From the NCBI RefSeq assembly GCF_963506605.1, contig NC_083277.1, positions 6,200,001 to 6,264,000 of the forward strand: 64,000 nucleotides of DNA, read 5' to 3'. Both the position numbers and the translations under genes were made by a program. The notes beneath the pieces are model-generated. The model saw nothing but the letters and a program-made list of their open reading frames with translations, made no database searches and was not told the DNA's origin. This document shows positions 10,017 to 48,103 of the stretch, piece after piece (positions within the stretch are counted from its first letter, which is position 1; the number at the start of each line of letters is the position of its first letter). The stretch comes from Zootoca vivipara (lineage: Eukaryota).

Positions 10017-12295
10017 CTAAGCGTTGCATTTAAATGGTTTTTCCCCTGTGTGAGTTAGGTTATGTCTTCTAAGCATTCCACTGTCTCTGAAGCTCTTTCC
10101 ACACTCCATACATTTAAATGGGTTCTCCCCTGTGTGAGTCCTTTGATGGATTCTTAGTGTTTCGCTACGACTGAAGCTCTTTCCACACTCCATACATTTA
10201 AATGTTTTGTCCCCTGTGTGAGTTTGATGATGTCTTCTAAACGTTCCGCTATCAATGAAGCTCTTTCCACACTCCATACATTTAAATGGTTTCTCCCCTG
10301 TGTGAGTTCGCTGATGTCTTCTAAGGGCTCCACTGTGACTGAAGCTCTTTCCACACTCCATGCATCTGAATGGTTTCTCTCCTGTGTGAGTTCGCTGATG
10401 TATTCTAAGGGCTCCACTGTGACTGAAGCTCTTTCCACACTCCATACAGCTGAATGGTTTGTCCCCTGTGTGAGTTTGATGATGTCTTCTAAGCATTCCA
10501 CTCTGTGTGAAGCTCTTTCCACACTCCATGCATTTAAATGGTTTCTCTCCTGTGTGAGTTCGCTGATGTATTCTAAGGGCTCCACTGTGACTGAAGCTCT
10601 TTCCACACTCCATACAGCTGAATGGTTTGTCCCCTGTGTGAGTTTGATGATGTCTTCTAAGCATTCCACTCTGTGTGAAGCTCTTTCCACACTCCATACA
10701 TTTAAATGGTTTCTCCCCTGTGTGAGTTCGCTGATGTCTTCTAAGGGCTCCACTGTGACTGAAGCTCTTTCCACACTCCATGCATCTGAATGGTTTCTCT
10801 CCTGTGTGAGTTCGCTGATGTATTCTAAGGGCTCCACTGTGACTGAAGCTCTTTCCACACTCCATACATCTGAATGGTTTGTCCCCTGTGTGAGTTCGCT
10901 GGTGTCTTCTAAGGGTTCCACTCTGACTGAAGCTCTTTCCACACTCCATACATCTGAATGGTTTTTCCCCTGTGTGAGTTAGGTTATGTCTTCTAAGCAT
11001 TCCACTGTTTCTGAAGCTCTTTCCACACTCAATACATTTAAATGGTTTCTCCCCTGTGTGAGTCCTTTGATGGATTCTTAGTGTTCCGCTATGACTGAAG
11101 CTCTTTCCACACTCCATACATTTAAATGTTTTCTCCCCTGTGTGAGTTCGCTGATGGATTCTTAGCGTTCCGCTATCACTGAAGCTCTTTCCACACTCCA
11201 TACATCTGAATGGTTTGTCCCCTGTGTGAGTTTGATGATGTCTTCTAAGCTTTCCACTCTGTGTGAAGCTCTTTCCACACTCCATGCATCTGAATGGTTT
11301 CTCTCCTGTGTGAGTTCGCTGATGTATTCTAAGGGCTCCACTGTGACTGAAGCTCTTTCCACACTCCATACATCTGAATGGTTTGTCCCCTGTGTGAGTT
11401 CGCTGGTGTCTTCTAAGGGCTCCACTGTGACTGAAGCTCTTTCCACACTCCATACATCTGAATGGTTTGTCCGCGGTGTGAATTCGTTGATGTACAGTAA
11501 GCTTTTCGCTATCGCTGAAGCTCTTTCCACACTCCATACATTTAAATGATTTCTCCCCTGTGTGAGTTTGATGATGTCTTCTAAGGTTTCCACTCTCTGT
11601 GAAGCTTTTTCCACACTCCATGCATTTAAATGGTTTCTCTCCTGTGTGAGTTCGCTGATGTATTCTAAGGGCTCCACTGTGACTGAAGCTCTTTCCACAC
11701 TCCATACAGCTGAATGGTTTGTCCCCTGTGTGAGTTTGATGATGTCTTCTAAGCATTCCACTCTGTGTGAAGCTCTTTCCACACTCCATGCATTTAAATG
11801 GTTTCTCTCCTGTGTGAGTTCGCTGATGTATTCTAAGGGCTCCACTCTGACTGAAGCTCTTTCCACACTCCATACATCTGAATGGTTTGTCCCCTGTGTG
11901 AGTTTGTTGATGTCTTCTAAGCATTCCACTCTCTGTGAAGCTCTTTCCACACTCCATACATTTAAATGGTTTGTCCCCGGTGTGTGCTCGCTGATGTCTT
12001 CTAAGGGTTCCACTCTGACTGAAGCTCTTTCCACACTCCATACATTTAAATGGTTTAGTCCCTGTGTGTGTTCCTTGAAGTTTTGTAGGAATTCCACTCC
12101 CACTGAAGTCCTTTCCACAATCCATACCTTTAAATGGTGTCTCCACTGTTTCAGTTCATTGATGTGAACTAAGGGTGTTCCCTGAATCACATTGTACATT
12201 CCACATATTTAAATTGTTTATTTGAGATTCCTAAAGAAATTACAGATTGCTCTGTCTTCTCTATTGCTTGCTTCTGAGTAAGGGGAAAGGAAATC
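10017..12295 (-). CDS. ZNF-1: C2H2 zinc-finger exon, 24 intact fingers; no KRAB exon found; in-frame stop at 12158-12156, first in-frame ATG after it at 12125 (may be a pseudogene)
   Basis: 709-aa ORF of CxxC..H..H/TGEKPF repeats; acceptor ttctcatctttacag|G at 12296/12295. Confidence 0.8.
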
Positions 12296-14869: not shown

Positions 14870-15850
14870 CCATTGCTGGTCGGGGCTTCCCTCCCCCAGG
14901 GAGGCTTCCCTTCCTTCCTCCCCCCCCCCCAAAAAAAGTTCCTTTCTCTGCCCCCTCCGTCCCAGAGTCTCCCCTGCGCCCAGAGACCCCCTTGGCCCGG
15001 CTCACCCCTCGCCCTGCGCGCAGAATCTCTCTCGAGCGCACCGACCTCTCCATCCGGAGGAGCCTCCCAAGACGAGCAGGGAGGGGGGAGGAGATAAGAG
15101 ACGGAAGTGGGGGAGGGAGGGGGGGTCTCTTTCCAGGCCTCTCTAGGCATCTCGGCTCTCTCGCTTCTCTAACCCCTTCCTTGCACTTTACTTCTCTCCA
15201 GCCAAAAGAGGCGCGCCTCGCCACATACGCGCAGCAAGGAGGAGCGCTCCAGGGCATTCCTGCCAGGGGAAAACGGGGGGCGCGCGTTCCCCGGGGCGCT
15301 TGTTTGGGGGCCTCTCTTGAACCCCCCAGCCCTGTTTGGGGATGGGGGCTCTCATACGGGCGCCCTTGGTGGGCATCTCAATTCCATTCGGGAACGGTGC
15401 TTGGCTGGCCAGATGGGCAGTATGGTTATAAAAATGATAATAATTTTATTTCATTCATTTGGGGGGAAATAGCCAATAACTCAACACTTCCGATAGGGGC
15501 TGCTGCCACGCGCCCGGATTTTCCCGGCCATTCGCTCGTTTGTGTATGTGTATACAGTACTGTATACCTGTATAATTGTCGCTGCCCGAAAATCCCGCCC
15601 TGTCTCTGGCCGGGAAATTCCGGGCGCACGGCAGCCGAAGGGCAAGGCTCGGAGAAGGCAGCCTCTGAGACGCCCAGTCCTCCGAGGGTTAAAAACACTG
15701 AGCTGCGGCTCCTAGAGGGGCAGGAAGTTCGCCACGTTGGGGGGAGGGGAGGTCAGAGTGAGCCGCTTGCTTTGGTCCTCCAGGAAGGGGAAGGAGGCCT
15801 GGCGACGTCCCTCGGCCGGGAGGCAGATGCTACACAGGGCAGGACCAAAG
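14870..15850. promoter_or_regulatory. CpG island, probable bidirectional promoter between ZNF-1 (-) and ZNF-2 (+)
   Basis: High GC/CpG density between head-to-head genes; shared promoter motif at 15687-15728; donor GAG|GTAAAG near 15852. Confidence 0.7.
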
Positions 15851-16767
15851 AGGTAAAGGGGCCAGCTCACAGTTTCCTTTTGACCCAGGAGCTCAGGTTG
15901 CAAAATGGGGGTCCATCAGCTGGGTGCTCCCCTTGCACAAGTCTCTTGAAGCCTCCCTCCCCCCCCCCAGGATATTTGGCTGGGGGGCTGATTTGGTGCA
16001 GAAGAAGCAGCCTTGCTCGTGGAAGAGGAGAAACAGACCCTCTTAAAAAAATAAAAAATGAGGATATAAGGAAGGGGATTCCACTGTCCCAAGAATCTTG
16101 GTTTTTGCAGCTGCAAAGTGTCATAGAATCGTATAGAATTGTAGAGTCGGAAGGGGCCCAGAGGATCATCTAGTCCAACCCCCTGCAATGCAGGGATCTC
16201 GGGATTTGAACCCACAACCCTGGGATTAAGAGTCTCCTGGTCTACTGACTTCAGAACTGCATTTTTCTCAATTGCAGGATCTTCCTTCCTAAGAGCTCCA
16301 TCCAGTCCCTGTGGGGTTGTATCATGAAGTTGTAGAGTTAGAAGGGCCCCAAAGGATCATCTAGTCCAACCCCCTGCAATGCAGGCATCTCTGTTGAAGC
16401 ATTCAGGACATTTGGCCTTCCAACCTCTGCTTAAAAACCTCCAGGGAAGGAGAGGCCACCAGCCACGCAGAAAGAGGTGGAGCGGCTTTCATGATCCAGA
16501 GCCGCAGGGGAGCTGCTTTTAGAGTTCCTGGACCTGAAGAGAGCCTGTTCGGCTCCAATTTGCCTTCTAAAGCTCAAGTCTCAAGGCAGTGGCAATAAAT
16601 AATTTTTTCCCCTCCTTCCCTCTGAGGTTGCTGCTGTTCAAGGGGGGGTCTTCTCCAGACCCCCTATTGAGAGTTTGGCTGGACTCCTTTGCTCTGGAGG
16701 GGTAAATAAAAGCTGATCTGCTGGATCTGACTCCTTTTGCAGAGTTGTCACCTGGGAGCTATAAGGG

Positions 16768-17299
16768 TCCCCAGAATCATCTACTCCGACCCCTGCAATG
16801 CAGGTAGCATACCTCACTTACGAAGTTCCTAAAGTCAAGTTCATGCATTTATCCATGCAGCAACAAATGAACACAGGCAGAAATCTTGGGATATAAAATA
16901 TAGTGAAATAGCGGTCTGAGTTTGTAGTGAGCAAGGTGGGTACACAAGGTAAAAGAAAACGAACAAACTAGGCAAATTTAAGTTCCTTCCAGGTGAGGGA
17001 CATGACCTGAGTCTAGGAATACGCATCTGTGATCCCCAGAATCATCTACTCCGACCCCTGCAATGCAGGTAGCATACCTCACTTACGAAGTTCCTAAAGT
17101 CAAGTTCATGCATTTATCCATGCAGCAACAAATGAACACAGGCAGAAATCTTGGGATATAAAATATAGTGAAATAGCGGTCTGAGTTTGTAGTGAGCAAG
17201 GTGGGTACACAAGGTAAAAGAAAACGAACAAACTAGGCAAATTTAAGTTCCTTCCAGGTGAGGGACATGACCTGAGTCTAGGAATACGCATCTGTGATC
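16768..17299. repeat. Perfect 265-bp tandem duplication
   Basis: 16768-17032 repeated at 17033-17297; identical ORF translations in the track. Confidence 0.95.
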
Positions 17300-17393
17300 T
17301 TCGTGCATTAACTAGCCCTACACTTGCTAGTTGTATTTGCCTGCAATTTCCCACAAGCATTTCAAACTGAAAGCCCTTTTTTCTTTCTTTCAG

Positions 17394-17520
17394 TAACTGG
17401 TGCCGTTGGAGGCGGCGGGTGATCACATCCCCAAAGAGGAGTGAGATCTCCTGGATCCAGGCCAAAGAACTCTCTACAAGGAAGTCGTGATGGAGGATTT
17501 GGGGAAGGAGGTCTCTGCAG
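17394..17520 (+). pseudogene. ZNF-2 degenerate KRAB-A exon (stops at 17394 and 17442); probable start codon ATG 17490
   Basis: 127-nt exon, *LVPLEAAGDHIPKEE*DLLDPGQRTLYKEVVMEDLGKEVSA; ag/gtaagg sites intact. Confidence 0.8.
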
Positions 17521-22009: not shown

Positions 22010-22265
22010 CAGAAACAACAAATTCTCTCTGTGGGATTGGAATAACACTTGTAATGCGACGATGAACTAAGAAGACAATGGCGATATAAAAATGTGGGTT
22101 AATATAAAAGATGCAGAAGGAAAGGATTCACAATAAGACCCACAAAGGGGAGGAGGGGGAAGTCCAAGGGATTCTTTGGGATCTTGTTCTTATATATTAT
22201 GCTATTATGTGAATGGGAATATTAATTTGGAAAATCAAATAAATAGATTAAAAAATAAATAAATA
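22010..22265 (+). mobile_element. L1-clade 3'UTR fragment with A-rich tail
   Basis: Homologous to 43660-43830, which follows an L1 ORF2 C-terminus; weaker match to 1-150. Confidence 0.65.
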
Positions 22266-22379: not shown

Positions 22380-22620
22380 GCAATAATTGCAAAGCAGTTG
22401 GCGGGCAGCGGAGGGAGGGAGAGAGGGAGAGGCAGCCTGGTCCTCCAGAGGCTTCCTAGAGAGGCAGGAAGTTCTGAAAGTGAGGTTGAGGTGGGGGGAG
22501 ACAATAGGGAGCCCCCATTCCCTGGTCCTTCCAGGCAGGGAAGGAGGAGGCCTGGTGACATTCCTTGGCCAGGAGGGGGAGGCTCAGGAGGAAGACATGG
22601 TGCGGGCAGGTATCCTGCAT
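22380..22620 (+). promoter_or_regulatory. Probable promoter/first exon of ZNF-3
   Basis: GC-rich; GCTTCCTAGAGAGGCAGGAAGT motif shared with the other promoters; candidate donors near 22480 and 22610. Confidence 0.45.
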
Positions 22621-26879: not shown

Positions 26880-26962
26880 GTGGAGCGGAAACCTCCATGA
26901 CGTGGTCAAGGCTCTCGCTTCTTTGTGGCCGGGTGGAAAGAGCCGTTCTGCCCTCATCTCAG
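26880..26962 (+). CDS. ZNF-3 pre-KRAB linker exon 2 (GGAETSMTWSRLSLLCGRVERAVLPSSQ)
   Basis: 83 nt, ttgcag| and CAG|gtaagc, phase 1-0. Confidence 0.8.
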
Positions 26963-34785: not shown

Positions 34786-36378
<1,593 letters not shown>

Positions 36379-40291: not shown

Positions 40292-41290
40292 TAGTCAACA
40301 CCTTACTTTAAAAAAAATATTAAGGATTTTCTTGGTTTACAAAGGTAGTACAATGTATCGTATTTTTTCTCATGTATCGTTTTTACACATTAATCTTGAA
40401 TTTTGAGACATTAGGAAGAAAGGGGGGAGGTGGGTGGGGTGCCGGTGTTTCTATTTTCCTTGGTATGTGTAGGGGTTCAGTGTCAGCGTTGATTGTGCAG
40501 GTTCTCTGTTGTTCGCTTGTGCTCCTTTGCTGGTGAGAGAGGTCGGGGGTTGGCGTAGGATGCGCTTGTTCACTATACCTGAAAAAGCCTGCCCGGGGGG
40601 GGGGGGGACCACTATGGAAATGTACAGAGTCTGGAAAAAGCATCAGCCAGAGTCAATGCTTTGCAAAGAACCATTTCAAAGTATCAAAGATTAAGATGAT
40701 CATGACAGTGAGAAGAAAAAGGAGGGCAAACTTGATGACCAATAGGTTTTTTGCTACAACCCTTTTAGTGCTTGAGATTCATGCAACTGCAGCTGCTGAA
40801 ATAAAAACTGAACTTGCTTTCATGGCATGCCTGATCACCGATAAAGAACAAATTGCCCACCCTTTGTTAGAAATCCTAGCTTCCAAAGTTTTGAATGTGC
40901 ACCCTGTCTGCATTCTGGAAGCACCTTAGCAACGCAGCCCCTGCTTTTTGATCTTCCTCCACAAAGCAGCTTCTTTATTCATTGCTCCTTGTTTGAAAGG
41001 GGGAAGTGGCTGATTTCATTTGTAAGATTTCTCACCTGCTTTTAAGGACATAAGAAGAACTCTGTCCCATGGCTCACCTGGCCCGGGAATTTGCTCTCAC
41101 AACGGCCAAGCAGGTGCTTCAGTGGGGAGCCCACAAGCAAGACCTGAACGCAACAGCCACTCTCCCCACTTGTGATTCTCACCAAATTTAGAGCCATTTA
41201 GAGCCTTCCTGCATGAACTTGCACTGCAGCAGTTATGCAAGCTGTTTCTTCTGTTTTTATGATGTGCATTTGTATTTGTTTATTCTACTA

Positions 41291-43450
41291 CAGTGGTATC
41301 TCAGGTTAAGAACACCCCAGGTTACGAATTTCTGGGTTATGCACATTTTTAACCCGGAAGTGGGTGTTCCAGCTTGCAAAATTATTTTGGGATGTGAAAG
41401 AGATCTCCGAGGCCTTTAGCAAAGTGGGCGGCACCTGGCCAAGTAAGCCCACCCACCCCGTGGGAGGGGGGAGAGGAACATTTTGGGATTCTGCAAGGCA
41501 TTTTGGGATTTGTTTATGTGACTCTGCCATGTGCCTTTGTCTCTGCTTTGCTCCTTCGTTTGGGGGACTCTGCCTTCTGCCATTGTTTTGGGGATTGTGT
41601 GGAGCCCAGTTCAGCTTCCTGAATCTGCCGACATGAAGCAAAGCAGCAAAGCCAAGAGAACCGTGATAACTGTTGAGGTAAAGAAGAAAATTATTTCCAA
41701 ATATGAAAGTGGGTTCCGTGTAAGTGATCTGGCAAGGCAGTTTGGGATGCCCAAATCTACAGTTAGTACCATCTTAAAAAATAAGGATGCTATTAAGGGG
41801 GCCAGGGTTGCAAAGGGTGTTTCAACACTCAAGCAACGAACACAGACAATGGAAGAAATGGAAAAAATGCTTTTAATTTGGATAACTGGGAAACAGGAGG
41901 CCGGTGACAGCATTCCTGTGAGCATAATTTGTGAAAAAGCTTTACAGTTGCATGCTGACCTCATCGCAAACTCCCCTGGAGCAAGTGCTGAGGTTGAGAG
42001 TTTCAAGGCAAGCCATGGGTGGTTTGAAAGATTTAAGAAGAGAACTGGCATCCACAGTGTTGGGAGACCTGGTGAAGATGCCAGTGGCAACAAATTGGAT
42101 GCTGACCAATTTGTTTTGGAGTTCAAAGATTATGTTGAGTCGCAGGGCTTAGTTCCCCAGCAAGTTTTCAACTGTGGCGAGACAGGCCTCTTTTGGAAGA
42201 AAATGCCAAAGAGGACCTACATCACAAAAGAGGAGGAAGCATTGCCAGGACACAACAAGCCCATGAAAGACAGGCTAACCCTTTTATTATGTGTGAATGC
42301 AAGTGGAGATTTTAAGTTGAAGCCTTTGCTAGTCTCCCATTCTGAGAACCCCATGACATTTAAGAAAAACAAGGTCATAAAAAGCAATTTGCATGTGATG
42401 TGGAGGGTGAACAGCAGAGCTTTGGTAACCAGGCAATTTTTTATTGAGTGGGTTCACAAAGTGTTTGGGCCAAGTGTGAAAAAATACCTCCAGGACAAAA
42501 ACCTTCCAATGAAGTGCCTGCTTGTTATGGATAATGCTCCAGCCCACCCTCCAGGATTGGCGGAAGAGCTGATGGAAGAATTCAATTTTATCAGTGTAAA
42601 GTTTTTGCCCCCCAACGCAACTCCCCTCATCCAGCCCATGGACCAGCAGGTCATATCAAATTTTAAGAAGCTTTACACCAAAGCACTGTTCCAAAAGTGC
42701 TTTGAGGTGACCTCAGACACAGACCTAACCCTAAGAGAGTTTTGGAAGAATCATTTCATTATCCTCCATTGCTTTCATATGATAGACAAAGCATGGAGGG
42801 ATGTGACTCAGAGAACACTGAAGGCAGCATGGAAGAAATTGTGGCCAGAAGCTGTCCCAGAACATGGAACGGAGGCTGTTGAAGAGGATGCTCCTATTGT
42901 TGAGGATATTGTCTCTCTGGCAAATTCCATGGGCTTGGAAGTGAGTTGTTCTGATGTGGAGGAGTTAGTGGAGGAGCAGAGGACTGAGCTCACCACAGAA
43001 GAACTTCAATACATTCTGACGGAGCAGCAAAAGGTGGCAACTGAGGAAATATCTTCAGAGGAGGAGGAGAGCAGAGAAAGTGCACCTACAGCAACAATCG
43101 AAGAACTGCTTGCAAAATGGGCTGAAGTGCAAGCTATTGCTGAAAAATATCACCCGGATAAAGCTGCTCTAAGTCAGGCCGCTAACACCTACAATGATAA
43201 CGTAATCTCTCACTTTAGGCTAATCTTAAAACAACGACAAAAGCAAGTCTCAATTGATAAAAGTTTGGTAAGGAAAAGACCCAGTGAGTCTGAACCAGGC
43301 GGCAGTGGTGTAAAGGGAAGGAATGGCAGGAGAGGAGTCACCAATTTTGAATGTGGAAGAGGACCCCAACCCCCCATCCAAACAATGACTATCATCAGTG
43401 CAGGTAAGAAAAAAATTACATTTTCATTTTCTAAAAATCATCTAAGCATC
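41291..43450 (+). mobile_element. Tigger/pogo DNA transposon remnant (left TIR present, right TIR not seen)
   Basis: TA|CAGTGGTATCTCAGGTTAAGAAC left TIR; 3' side runs into an L1 fragment. Confidence 0.85.
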
Positions 43451-43468
43451 ATCAGGATGCTTAGATGA
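41633..43468 (+). CDS. TIGD1-like pogo transposase (CENP-B N-terminal HTH, HTH_Tnp_Tc5, DDE_1), first catalytic Asp replaced by Gly; candidate domesticated exon 41610-43403
   Basis: ITVEVKKKII..SDLARQFGMPKSTVSTIL; FKASHGWFERFKKR; VFNCGETGLFWK; LVMDNAPAH; IQPMDQ. Confidence 0.88.
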   Translation: MKQSSKAKRTVITVEVKKKIISKYESGFRVSDLARQFGMPKSTVSTILKNKDAIKGARVAKGVSTLKQRTQTMEEMEKMLLIWITGKQEAGDSIPVSIICEKALQLHADLIANSPGASAEVESFKASHGWFERFKKRTGIHSVGRPGEDASGNKLDADQFVLEFKDYVESQGLVPQQVFNCGETGLFWKKMPKRTYITKEEEALPGHNKPMKDRLTLLLCVNASGDFKLKPLLVSHSENPMTFKKNKVIKSNLHVMWRVNSRALVTRQFFIEWVHKVFGPSVKKYLQDKNLPMKCLLVMDNAPAHPPGLAEELMEEFNFISVKFLPPNATPLIQPMDQQVISNFKKLYTKALFQKCFEVTSDTDLTLREFWKNHFIILHCFHMIDKAWRDVTQRTLKAAWKKLWPEAVPEHGTEAVEEDAPIVEDIVSLANSMGLEVSCSDVEELVEEQRTELTTEELQYILTEQQKVATEEISSEEEESRESAPTATIEELLAKWAEVQAIAEKYHPDKAALSQAANTYNDNVISHFRLILKQRQKQVSIDKSLVRKRPSESEPGGSGVKGRNGRRGVTNFECGRGPQPPIQTMTIISAGKKKITFSFSKNHLSIIRMLR

Positions 43469-43860
43469 GATGGCCAAGAGATGGAAAGAAGATAAAGTCC
43501 CTACCAGAGAAGAATGGCAGATCAAGTTGATGGATTATTATGCCGAAATAGCTAAAATGACCGGAAGAATCAGAAATCAGGAAGACAAAAATTTTAATAA
43601 GGATTGGGGAAATTTTACAATTTATCTTAAAAACCATTGTAAACCGTTAAAATAGTTTAGTAGGATTGGAATAACACTTGTAGTTTAATGGTGAATTTTG
43701 GACACAATGGAGAGGTAAAAGATTTGGATTATCATAAAAGATGCAGGAGAAAATGATCAACAATAGGACCCACAAAGGAAAGGAGGGAAGTCCAGGAGAT
43801 TTTTTTGGAATCTTGTTTCTGTCTTGTACAGTATGTTGGATATGACTGTAAAATTTTAAT
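43465..43860 (+). mobile_element. L1-clade LINE 3' end
   Basis: AKRWKEDKVPTREEWQIKLMDY.AE.AKMT..IRN..F.KDW peptide then 3'UTR. Confidence 0.8.
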
Positions 43861-44499
43861 CTGAAATGGATCCTATAGCTCTGATCCAGCAGGTTTTTCT
43901 CCTTATATCCAACTAGCTGGACTTTTTAAAAAAGTAAGATTATGCTAGCTGGAAATTTGGGATCATGGCCTCAAGAACTGGTGGCCCCAGGCATAAGAGC
44001 CCAGTTGTCAGAACTTGATTTTGGGAGCCCCATGGGACAGAAATAACTAAGCTGGCTGTTATGTTCAATATCTGGGCATTCTCACTTTGGACCAGCCAAC
44101 CCAAGATGGCCACTCCCTCCAAATGAGACAAACACACCCACCCTTTTTTTTCAAAAGCCTGTTGCAGGACAAGGCAAAAGCGTGTGGCTAAAAACTTTGC
44201 TGGGTGGCTTGGGGAAAAGTCCACCCTCCTCCTCCATGTGTGGTAGACACTCCTTCCTTGGGGTTTTTGAAGCAGAGGTTGGATGGCCATCTGTCAGGGA
44301 TGCTTTAACTGAATTTATTCCTTCATTGCAAGGGGGTTGAGCTAGATGACCCCAGGGTTCCCCTTCTATGATTCTCTGAAATGTTTCTGGGTGCGAGGCA
44401 AAGTGGAAGCAACTTGTCTTTCATTGCCTCTGAACAAAGAGGGAACCAGAGGAGGATCGCTCCCAGCTTCCCCAGAAAAATCAGCGTCCAGGAAGGATC

Positions 44500-44860
44500 C
44501 GGCAGAGGAGTCATTGCTAAAGGCGCGATGGGCGAGGACCACGCGGCTTCTACCACTACGCCCCTTAATGGTTAAACGCACTAAGCTCCGCTTCCTAGAG
44601 GGGCAGGAAGTAGTAACGTTGCGTCGGTGGGGGAAGGTGACGGCGAGCGCACAGGTCTGGCATGGCTTCCGGAAGGGTGACGTTCCGGGCAGAGGTCTGA
44701 AGCTTCGGAGAAAAGGGCCGGGCCAAGGAGGTGAAGGCGCAGCCCCCGGGGGGGGGGCGGGGGCGGGGGCGGGGGCAGTGCTTGGGGGGAGACCCCCCCT
44801 CCACCTCCCTCTCGAAATCCACAGGTTGCGGGGTTGGGGCATGCAACATGGCTGCAAAAA
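44500..44860 (+). promoter_or_regulatory. CpG-island promoter of ZNF-4
   Basis: CpG-rich; ETS sites (CCGGAAG, CAGGAAGT), tandem GGGGCGGGG GC-boxes at 44753-44776, shared motif 44570-44611. Confidence 0.75.
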
Positions 44861-44920
44861 GGGATCCGCCCGCTTTATAGCTGGCTCTGCAAGGCCATCG
44901 TATATGGGGGTTATTATTAT

Positions 44921-45091
44921 CAGTGCTTTTTTCTTTTAAAAATATGTTTAGGGGTACTCTCATTTGACTCAAGAAAATCACCATTCTATAGTTCAAATTG
45001 GGAAAAATAAATACAGTAAATGGACAAAAGTACAGATCCACAAAATGTTTAGCCCATGTGTACACTTGTGTCCCCACAGACAAAAGCACTG
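44921..45091. mobile_element. Short TIR MITE (CAGTGCTTTT...AAAAGCACTG); further copies at ~26412-26530 and 55371-55548
   Basis: Terminal inverted repeats and three homologous copies in the window. Confidence 0.75.
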
Positions 45092-45202
45092 GTTGTTATT
45101 ATTATTATTATTATTAGTCGTATATGGGGGTTGTTGTTGTTGTTATTTAATTCATCATATATGGAGTTATTATTAGTATCATTCATCGTATAGGGGGTAA
45201 TT

Positions 45203-46131
45203 GTTGTTGTTTAGTCGTTTAGTCGTGTCCGACTCTTCGTGACCCCATGGACCATAGCACGCCAGGCACTCCTGTCTTGCACTGCCTCCCGCAGTTTGGT
45301 CAAACTCATGTTCGTAGCTTCGAGAACACTGTCCAACCATCTTGTCCTCTGTCGTCCCCTTCTCCTAGTGCCCTCAATCTTTCCCAACATCAGGGTCTTT
45401 TCCAAGGATTCTTCTCTTCTCATGAGGTGGCCAAAGTATTGGAGCCTCAGCTTCACGATCTGTCCTTCTAGGGAGCACTCAGGGCTGATTTCCTTAAGAA
45501 TGGATAGGTTTGATCTTCTTGCAGTCCATGGGACTCTCAAGAGTCTCCTCCAGCACCATAATTCAAAAGCATCAATTCTTCGGCGATCAGCCTTCTTTAT
45601 GGTCCAGCTCTCACTTCCATACATCACTACTGGGAAAACCATAGCTTTAACTATACGAACCTTTGTCGGCAAGGTGATGTCTCTGCTTTTTAAGATGCTG
45701 TCTAGGTTTGTCATTGCTTTTCTCCCAAGAAGCAGGCGTCTTTTAATTTCGTGACTGCTGTCACCATCTGCAGTGATCAAGGAGCCCAAGAAAGTAAAAT
45801 CTCTCACTGCCTCCATTTCTTCCCCTTCTATTTGCCAGGAGGTGATGGAACCAGTGGCCATGATCTTGGTTTTTTTGATGTTGAGCTTCAGGCCATATTT
45901 TGCGCTCTCCTCTTTCACCCTCATTAAAAGGTTCTTTAATTCCTCCTCACTTTCTGCCATCAAGGTTGTGTCATCTGCATATCTGAGGTTGTTGATATTT
46001 CTTCCGGCAATCTTAATTCCGGCTTGGGATTCATCTAGTCCAGCCTTTCGCATGATGAATTCTGCATATAAGTTAAATAAGCAGGGAGACAATATACAAC
46101 CTTGTCGTACTCCTTTCCCAATTTTGAACCA
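45203..46131 (-). mobile_element. 5'-truncated BovB (RTE) LINE with uninterrupted RT C-terminal ORF
   Basis: LRYADD motif, 293-aa open frame, (CAA)n tail, 13-bp TSD ATAGGGGGTAATT (45190-45202, 46132-46144). Confidence 0.95.
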
Positions 46132-46179
46132 ATAGGGGGTAATTAGTACAGTATTATTGTTGTATATGGGGGTTATGGA

Positions 46180-46514
46180 CTATGCGGGTGGCGCTGGGGG
46201 TTAAACCACAGAGCCTAGGGTCGGCAGTTCGAATCCCTGCAATGGAGTAAGCTCCCGTTGCTCGGTCCCAGCTCCTGCCAACCTAGCAGTTCGAAAGCAT
46301 GTCAAAGTGCATTTAGAAAAATAGGTACCGCTCCAGCGGGAAGATAAACGGCGTTTCTGTGTGCTGCTCTGGTTCGCCAGAAGCGGCTTAGTCATGCTGG
46401 TCACATGACCTGGAAGCTGTAAGCCGGCTCCCTCAGCCAGTAAAGCAAGATGAGCGCAGCAACCCCAGAGTCGGTCATGACTGGACCTAATGGTCAGGGG
46501 TCCCTTTACCTTTT
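46180..46514 (+). mobile_element. Sauria SINE
   Basis: Homologous to the 1813 copy; CCCTTTACCTTT tail. Confidence 0.9.
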
Positions 46515-47387
46515 GGGGGGTTATTATTAGTTCTATTAGTAGTATTAGTATCATCATCATAGAATCATACTATTGTAGAGTTAGAAGGGAAAGGGGGGCA
46601 AGGCATGGGGAGCTCAGCAGAGCTCAGTTGGCAGCACCAATCATACAATTAGAAGGAACGCCAGAGGTCCTCTAATCCAGCCCCCTGCAATGCAGGAATC
46701 TCTGCTAAAGCATCCATGGTTGGTGGCCCTCCAGCCTCTGCTTGGCAATCTCCAAGGAAGGAGAGCCCACCTCCTCCCGAGGGAGACAGTTCCACTGATG
46801 AACATCTCTTACTGTCAGAATTTTTTCCGTATGTCTGGTTGGAATTTTCTTTCTTGTAACTTGAAGCCATTGGCTTGAGTCCTACCTTTCAGAGCAGGAG
46901 AAAACTTGCTCCCTCTTCCATGTGACAGTTCTTCGAATATTTGAAGACAGCTACCCTGTCTCCTCTCAGTCTCCACTTCTCCAGGCTAAACATACCCAGC
47001 TCCCTCAACCATTCCTCATAAGGCTTCGTTTCTAGACCCTTGATCATCTTGGTGGCTCTCCTCTGCACACCTTCCAGTTTAACTATATCCTTCTAATGTT
47101 GTGGCGCCCAGAACTACTATTATATTTATTTATATCCCACCTTTTCCTCAGACTACATACAAAATATAATGGAAAATTAGTTAATAATATTTCTAACAAA
47201 TGAGAAAAAAATAGCATAAGCTGAAGGGGAAAAAATAGGATAAGCTGAAGGAAAAAGGGATTGACAATGGAAAACCAGGGAAGGATGATGGGAAGTCAAG
47301 GGATTTTACCTTTACCTTTTACCTCCACCAGGGCTCCTCTTATCTTCAGAAATCCCCTTGTTTACATCTCTTCTGTCTCCTCCCCAG

Positions 47388-47470
47388 GCAACACAATGGC
47401 ATCAAAGGCACCTCCAGGATCCTACCTCCTTTGGGGTAGAGCAGAAAGAACAGCTGTGCAGCCATCTCAG
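47388..47470 (+). CDS. ZNF-4 pre-KRAB linker exon (GNTMASKAPPGSYLLWGRAERTAVQPSQ), ATG at 47396
   Basis: 83 nt, strong acceptor, CAG|gtaagt, phase 1-0. Confidence 0.85.
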
Positions 47471-48019
47471 GTAAGTTAGGGACCACCTGGGAGAGATGCT
47501 AGGGGTAGGCCTGGACACCTCCGTTCTGTCTCACTATGCTGCGGGAGGGGGGGGGGGGACTGAATAACATTCCCCTTTCTTCTTGATGCCCAAAGATATG
47601 AAGATGATCAAGAGAGAAGTCTGTGGAAATGACTTTTCCTGCGGGTCTTGAATCTAGTAAAAAGGAAGAAAAAAAATAGTAAGGCGAAAGCAAAGCTGAT
47701 TTGTTTAATTTGTACGCCACCTTTGTATGTTGAGAAATCTTTAAGCCGTTTACATAGCAGATACCAATGGGTGGTTTTCAATTATCTCATTCCGTCAGCT
47801 CAGGGATTACTGCTAGTGTGGTAGGATGCCACCCTGCTCATGTGCTGCCCACTCTCCATATGTGCTCCAGAGGGTTGGGAGACCCCTAGTACAGAATTTT
47901 TGGGGGTGGGGGGAGATGGGGGGAATTGCATTGCACCAAAAGAAATCCCTGTGCTGATGGAATGAGTGCCTTAGCACTATGTTAAATGCAACCATATATA
48001 CATTTATATACAAATACAA

Positions 48020-48020
<1 letters not shown>

Positions 48021-48100
<80 letters not shown>
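48021..48100. repeat. (CA)n(TA)n microsatellite
   Basis: Directly visible. Confidence 0.95.

Positions 48101-48103
<3 letters not shown>

Follow-up and report, generated by a model that had tools for sequence, protein, structure and literature searches.

How could a DNA transposon that inserted beside a host gene come to place its entire transposase in front of that gene's protein? The question is raised by a 64,000-nucleotide (nt) stretch of the Zootoca vivipara genome (C2:6200001-6264000; here, the window), a cluster of C2H2 zinc-finger (ZNF) genes in which a copy of a Tigger/pogo (TIGD1-like) DNA transposon (41291..43437, plus strand) lies upstream of a KRAB-ZNF gene. An 8-nt deletion takes the transposase frame past its family stop codon to a splice donor carried by the element, and the transposase and KRAB-ZNF exons together form an open chain of 1079 amino acids (aa). 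We assign a probability of about 0.55 to the explanation that this chain is a long isoform of the KRAB-ZNF gene, with a short isoform beside it, and that its frame is kept while the transposase is mostly passive.

A transposase frame that passes its stop and reaches an element-borne donor

The transposase coding exon (41633..43403, plus strand; aa 1-591 of the predicted protein P0121) contains CENP-B_N, HTH_Tnp_Tc5, and DDE_1 domains, all above the Pfam cut-off, a combination that marks it as a Tigger/TIGD1-like pogo transposase. The named proteins closest to it come from lacertid lizards and are TIGD1-like. The left end of the element directly follows a TA (41289-41290), and the right end is missing: no match to it occurs within 43300-53000, with up to 4 mismatches allowed, and the likeness to sister copies stops at approximately 43430-43442, near 43437, where another repeat starts. 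In place of the right end is a fragment of a multicopy repeat (43453..43866, plus strand), which matches 22031-22172 and C2:6287855-6287556 and which we take to be L1-like; its 43455-43640 portion returned no Pfam match. The first catalytic Asp is Gly in Zootoca (NCGETG, versus NCDETG in 7/7 other proteins checked), so the copy has neither the intact Asp triad nor the paired ends of an autonomous element. In Podarcis, the triad is broken elsewhere, with the third Asp replaced by Asn.

Compared with sister copies L002, L005, L006, and L008 (alignment, by eye), 8 nt are absent at 43312/43313, a site occupied by an A-run in the sister copies. This frame-shifting deletion (43312..43313, plus strand) leaves the family C-terminus and stop (43323..43388, plus strand) out of frame: the +1 frame reads MAGEESPILNVEEDPNPPSKQ followed by a stop codon, a region that is in frame in L033, which retains the unshifted C-terminus EDDPEPPSNQ and stop. 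The family TGA is at 43386-43388, with the donor 15 nt further on. The original prediction described a main frame that passes this stop and reaches GCAG/GTAAGA at 43403, and its coordinates were all confirmed.

The donor itself, CAG/GTAAGA (43401..43409, plus strand), is in phase 1 in the shifted frame. It had been singled out as a perfect donor, and it is present at 43403 but not special to this copy: AGGTAA comes right after the PSKQ-stop motif in 22/29 other loci, the motif itself occurring in 25/29, which makes this a splice site contributed by the transposon. The interval 41610-43403 measures 1794 nt, a multiple of 3, as had been stated. On the acceptor side, position 47388 follows a CAG and begins a phase 1 exon, also as predicted, but the openness upstream of its ATG covers only 3 codons and is expected by chance. 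Having lost its right end, the element would hold a donor without its normal partner, and the next strong acceptor would then be the one in the ZNF gene.

The exon chain 41633-43403, 47388-47470, 48483-48609, 49263-49364, and 52399-53555 encodes 1079 aa without a stop, in the order transposase, linker, KRAB, and fingers. It equals a Z. vivipara protein in RefSeq (XP_060125417.1; P0121, NCBI) exactly, at 100% identity, and the junction recurs in the models of three Podarcis species, which bears out the proposed in-frame 43403>47388 fusion at the level of annotation. A transposase domain is thus in frame with a host domain across at least two exons, as in other host-transposase fusions. The host part, on the plus strand throughout, consists of a linker exon (47388..47470; aa 592-618 of P0121), a KRAB-A exon (48483..48609; Pfam KRAB, E = 6.6e-16), a KRAB-B exon (49263..49364) whose acceptor and donor reproduce P0121 exactly, and a zinc-finger exon (52399..53555) with 8 C2H2 fingers according to Pfam and the exon chain; such a pair of KRAB exons ahead of a C2H2 array exon is the layout of a KRAB zinc-finger gene. 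At the residues mutated in KRABINER, a KRAB-transposase fusion of vespertilionid bats (DV, EE, and LYR), the alignment gives EV, GE, and LYK, suggesting that the KRAB residues for TRIM28/KAP1 recruitment are near-canonical, with one acidic residue lost. A single-sequence AlphaFold model of P0121 was uninformative (mean predicted local distance difference test score, 35.9).

A CpG island and a probable short isoform within the fusion intron

Within the intron between the transposase and linker exons lies a CpG island (44401..44900, plus strand; CpG scan) that holds a candidate first exon of a short KRAB-ZNF isoform, including a phase-1 donor, GGAG/GTGAAG, at 44730, all of which the original prediction missed. 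A 42-nt stretch is common to this island and to the island at 15687-15728, before another ZNF gene. The orthologous CpG-island exon is joined to the linker in Lacerta agilis (P0138) and in Podarcis lilfordi (P0148), and P0148 also connects the 3' part of the transposase to the CpG-island exon, as would be expected if the region is transcribed throughout. The 488-aa short form P0146 starts at the Met corresponding to 47397, the short-isoform ATG in the linker exon. Because an island with a candidate first exon lies in the intron, the gene probably has two isoforms, and the fusion is best read as the long form of an ordinary KRAB-ZNF gene.

The shifted frame in other lacertids

The Podarcis models have the same transposase, linker, and ZNF, and L. 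agilis P0138 has the same upstream ZNF gene. The junction (SAG/xTMA) occurs in models from P. raffonei (P0122/P0147), P. lilfordi (P0149), and P. muralis (P0150), with the P. raffonei model, obtained in a search among longer proteins, measuring 1081 aa and belonging to the cluster that also contains the other two Podarcis models. It is modelled in 4/5 of the lacertid species that have a model at the locus, and the full fusion is modelled in 3/5. The linker ahead of the donor comes in three lengths, those of P. lilfordi and P. muralis being 12 aa, and that of P. raffonei 17 aa, shorter than in Zootoca, and all three Podarcis species read it in the shifted frame; an ortholog comparison of this kind had been proposed in the original prediction. 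These lengths fit one deletion that was later extended as well as several separate deletions, and the two cannot be told apart. Identity between Zootoca and P. raffonei is 473/553 in the transposase, 65/73 in the KRAB domain, and 202/222 in the fingers; among the DNA-binding domains of the transposase, it is 63/69 in HTH2 and 38/49 in HTH1, the least conserved part. The accessible part of PMC10214862 places the separation of P. lilfordi and P. muralis at 18-20 million years, and the shifted frame, judging from the species that share it, likely predates the Zootoca-Podarcis split and would hence be older than that; no date for the latter split was found in the accessible part of PMC12961865.

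Read and transcript evidence at the deletion and donor

Length changes beside the donor are also visible in sequencing reads. Run X16, from organism B (a related species), has a joint of 43312>43359 with 10 letters between, a net loss of 36 nt, as well as a 21-nt insertion; both changes agree with the Podarcis proteins at the DNA level, independently of annotation. In the X16 contig (178 nt; depth, 8.5), the fit to the window runs 46 letters past the joint, to 43404, with 26 letters left over, and the contig likely splices at the donor because an unspliced copy would match on beyond 43404. Contigs from probable-RNA runs depart from the window sequence at 43404, in a stretch that is common to many copies and not assignable to a locus. 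The row behind 43404 in X17, whose consensus merges two dissimilar contigs (agreement, 0.63), shares 16/30 letters with the linker exon, by eye. The corresponding row in X11 was considered as linker exon and rejected, and the transposase reads in the listed RNA rows were similarly rejected as products of this locus, all having at least 2 other differences and the appearance of paralogs.

In raw RNA runs, depth is below 1 over the linker exon and at most 0.16 over the CpG island, and since the locus is nearly silent in three RNA runs, the test for the junction had no power. RNA support was absent among the 15 of 454 joints listed, repeats having flooded the tables. For the RNA check that had been proposed for the junction, one contig of probable RNA seems to depart from the genome at the donor, and these near-silent runs contain no junction read.

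Selection on the transposase

The transposase frame contains no stop or frameshift; several are present in each of L037, L052, L053, and L041, copies of similar divergence. Under simulated drift of 6-8%, the probability of finding no stop is 0.022-0.005, falling to at most 0.0007 with an assumed 0.05 indels per substitution. The leaf ratio of nonsynonymous to synonymous substitutions (dN/dS), computed from distances between real copies, is 0.65 (0.47-0.91) at a kappa of 2 and 0.78 (0.56-1.08) at a kappa of 4, in comparison with 0.54-0.98 for broken copies and 0.30-0.37 for a transposase-SCAN-ZNF fusion on the same chromosome. Against organism B, the C-terminal region (40 of 108 rows listed) has 29 differences, which resolve into 15 replacement and 3 silent changes among 18 single-hit codons, with 5 multihit codons set aside. 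Amino acid constraint on the transposase thus appears weak, which fits a passive role.

Proposed origin of the fusion

The preferred explanation is that a Tigger element upstream of a KRAB-ZNF gene lost its right end and, by a small deletion that shifted the frame, the use of its stop codon, and that the element's downstream donor likely splices the entire transposase onto the N-terminus of the KRAB-ZNF protein without a break in frame. A transcript would begin in or before the element, splice to the linker exon, and be translated, with the short isoform likely arising from the gene's own CpG island. Selection may preserve the open frame more than its residues: truncating changes would be removed because a stop in the first exon would cancel that transcript's KRAB-ZNF product. 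The protein would repress chromatin through KRAB at the targets of its fingers, and the dead transposase would extend the N-terminus, for the most part passively, perhaps contributing dimerization or weak binding of element ends.

Several observations weigh against this reading. A stop-free frame of at least 549 codons is present in 6/9 family copies examined, and the dN/dS interval includes 1 at a kappa of 4 and barely excludes 1 at a kappa of 2. No read or contig spanning 43403>47388 was seen, the three raw RNA runs having been sampled at approximately 6% each at this near-silent locus, and X16 is a single contig from a run that is RNA by guess only. The models are themselves mixed. P0138 (L. 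agilis) and P0135 (an older Zootoca model) bypass the junction and hold only part of the transposase, running through other sites from the upstream ZNF gene by way of half the transposase into the downstream gene, such that the frame at the locus may be broken or the fusion may simply be unsupported there. The junction is present in the P. muralis model, which then exits the frame in KRAB-A and has no fingers. According to the accessible part of PMC10214862, the P. lilfordi annotation was guided by the P. muralis UniProt proteome in addition to RNA-seq and Iso-Seq, and these models are therefore not independent proof of splicing. Finally, in-frame indels are the only kind that protein models can show.

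Alternative explanations

The short KRAB-ZNF isoform from the CpG island could be the real gene, with splicing at the donor amounting to low-level noise and the open frame owed to chance, to ascertainment, or to selection on a stand-alone transposase. The CpG island, the short-isoform models, the empty junction search in near-silent runs, the near-neutral change in residues, the incomplete L. agilis and P. muralis models, and the other copies with open frames all lend themselves to this account. We consider it unlikely in view of a frame that is open to the donor in four species, over at least 18-20 million years by the date in the accessible part of PMC10214862, of several length changes beside the donor that all keep the shifted frame, and of the improbability of the open frame under simulated drift. 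It is also doubtful that the protein is a two-handed repressor, in effect KRABINER reversed, whose helix-turn-helix (HTH) domains would bind the ends of cognate Tigger elements and their short derivatives, with other sites left to the fingers and silencing at both kinds of site supplied by the internal KRAB. Both HTH domains are above the Pfam cut-off in Zootoca and Podarcis, HTH2 identity to Podarcis is 61-63/69, short copies of the element are plentiful, with 40 scored out of 1566 first-look candidates, and four KRAB-transposase fusions repress at cognate inverted repeats, as reported in the accessible part of bioRxiv 10.1101/2020.05.07.082677. On the other side, HTH1 identity to Podarcis is 38/49 against 50/51 in the neighboring transposase-SCAN-ZNF gene, and dN/dS is 0.65-0.78 versus 0.30-0.37 in that gene.

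The two remaining alternatives concern the ends of the transposase exon. The original prediction allowed for a read-through product, KRAB-KRAB-transposase-KRAB-ZNF, in which the upstream double-KRAB gene would enter the element at 41610. The candidate 5' untranslated region (UTR) intron of the element (41443..41609, plus strand; GTAAGC at 41443), whose use is predicted, has an AG-free zone at 41498-41602 followed by AG at 41603 and 41608, 41610-43403 is a symmetric phase 1-1 exon, and the upstream KRAB-B exon ends in phase 1. Such a product is nevertheless highly improbable, as none of the models found joins the upstream KRAB exons to the whole transposase, no such protein occurs among 25 long matches or the best 120 of 660 near-length matches, and Podarcis models P0122 and P0149 begin within 41443..41609, upstream of 41610. 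At the other end, the 8-nt deletion might be an assembly error, given that the site is an A-run in sister copies and that the donor lies in the 3' UTR of unshifted copies, where it would open a 3'-UTR intron. This is very unlikely: the shifted frame recurs in three Podarcis species, the linker in the second-species contig is 36 nt shorter and in frame, and a read check at the indel recovered an X1 contig over 43228-43342 with 0 differences and 0 gaps, which extends 30 letters to the right of the break, one below the bridging rule, and is perhaps not independent of the assembly. Among the pieces listed for DNA run X2, none crosses the deletion.

Other modelled transposase-first fusions

The window fusion has a counterpart on the same chromosome. 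Approximately 2 Mb away (C2:8289760-8298792; L034/L067-L068), a second Tigger fusion encodes transposase-SCAN-ZNF (XP_034963211.1 and orthologs; P0159) and is modelled in five lacertid species. It resembles the window fusion in its Tigger family, in its use of the same element donor, and in placing the transposase first. It differs in being a separate insertion, in using the donor in phase 2, in having SCAN rather than KRAB, and in its clear purifying selection (identity, 92-93%; HTH1, 50/51).

Just past the end of the window is an inverted duplicate of 46535-55468 (82-99% identical by piece) that is without the CpG island and the Tigger. This duplicate (L063-L064; C2:6266686-6276584, minus strand) has most of its fingers deleted. 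At LOC118081165 (P0169/P0188-P0190), two rounds of NCBI annotation give models in which seven hAT-like transposase exons are spliced to the duplicated linker acceptor, and the product, which rests on models rather than reads, would be hAT-KRAB with at most one partial finger. Outside the lacertids, P0005, a Tigger-like protein model from the agamid Phrynocephalus forsythii, is 67% identical to the window's protein and continues in the shifted frame to QTMTTISAG, followed by unrelated sequence; by its sequence, it is possibly an independent transposase-first case.

Among other copies of this Tigger family, L032, L033, L035, and L036 have open frames of 549-643 codons and leaf dN/dS ratios of 0.30 to 0.96; named counterparts exist in other lacertids for L032, L035, and L036, and the L036 model has an extra N-terminal exon. 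L002, L005, and L013 carry a second donor-like motif 385-467 nt past the donor, in addition to sequence resembling the 5'-UTR acceptor region.

Neighboring genes in the window

The motif CCTAGAGRGGCAGGAAGT is found at the likely starts of three ZNF genes (15687-15728, 22451-22472, and 44570-44611). The ZNF exons at 34786-36378 and 52374-53555 share a similar nonfinger tail, suggesting tandem duplicates. In the ZNF gene upstream of the element, a linker exon separates two KRAB-A/B pairs. Self-BLAST detected no DNA-level paralog of the 47388..47470 linker exon within the window, its likeness to 26881-26962 being apparent by eye only. A direct duplication of approximately 270 nt (16765-17040 and 17030-17300) lies just before a degenerate-looking KRAB-A-like exon at approximately 17400-17520 (by eye). 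On the minus strand, 10017-12155 contains a 712-codon open frame of near-identical, repetitive zinc fingers, suggesting recent internal expansion.

Comparison with known transposase fusions

Transposase capture is an accepted source of transcription factors, and the route described for it places the host exon first and uses an acceptor supplied by the element. At this locus, the mirror route is visible stepwise, as an element donor, a lost right end, a stop-skipping deletion, and an in-frame host exon. Since the Tigger donor sits just past the stop, any deletion that skips the stop would put the whole transposase before the next ZNF gene. We tentatively suggest that a reversed capture route operates in lizard ZNF clusters, with at least two Tigger cases and a hAT case on the duplicate, and that it may produce repressors with two DNA-binding systems; the window gene would then represent a stage at which selection acts on the frame alone. 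The cluster offers a natural series, from the strongly constrained SCAN fusion to the weakly constrained KRAB fusion and the young hAT-KRAB on the duplicate, and the series makes it testable whether the frame or promoter is what preserves such a fusion at the outset, with the DNA binding of the transposase becoming a reason to retain it only afterwards.

The accessible part of the survey by Cosby et al. (bioRxiv 10.1101/2020.05.07.082677) reports 106 host-transposase fusions, with KRAB involved in 32 events and with element-derived splice sites; an upstream acceptor was used in 8/9 traced fusions, and dN/dS was below 1 in 81/81 tested. The weak constraint on the window fusion sets it apart from these published cases. 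A lacertid branch appears in Fig. 1 of the same preprint, and the window gene or its SCAN neighbor may already be listed there. Our literature search, which covered Podarcis with KRAB and transposase as well as the accessible part of this preprint, returned no description of the window gene, and the accessible part of PMC10027918 does not mention KRAB.

Among named fusions, POGK and POGZ likewise combine a pogo-derived transposase with KRAB or zinc fingers, but they are old genes with the host domain N-terminal and Ka/Ks ratios of approximately 0.06-0.07; the accessible part of the same source (PMC7386202) sets TIGD1-like sequences aside as akin to pseudogenes. The name of TIGD-G4-Zscan29, in the accessible part of the Cosby et al. 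preprint, points to a Tigger-derived domain fused with a SCAN zinc-finger gene, and our guess is that it is the 1/9 case without an upstream acceptor. A transposase ahead of KRAB, which the original prediction called an unusual architecture, is indeed unusual but has precedent, and the reversed order, too, is probably not new.

The closest parallel is KRABINER, as described in the accessible part of that preprint. In both, a full-length transposase of the Tc1/mariner-pogo type is spliced, or in the window gene predicted to be spliced, to a KRAB-ZNF host through an element splice site, a small deletion creates a single frame (1 nt in KRABINER), and the parental transcript persists as an alternative form, which for the window gene would be the predicted short isoform. 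In KRABINER, KRAB precedes the transposase and the acceptor is upstream of the transposase reading frame, a pattern shared with KTIGD and not seen in the window fusion; here, the donor is downstream, KRAB is internal, and the fingers are kept. The locus is a reversed-order variant of the host-transposase fusions, and its protein is already present in automatic annotation.

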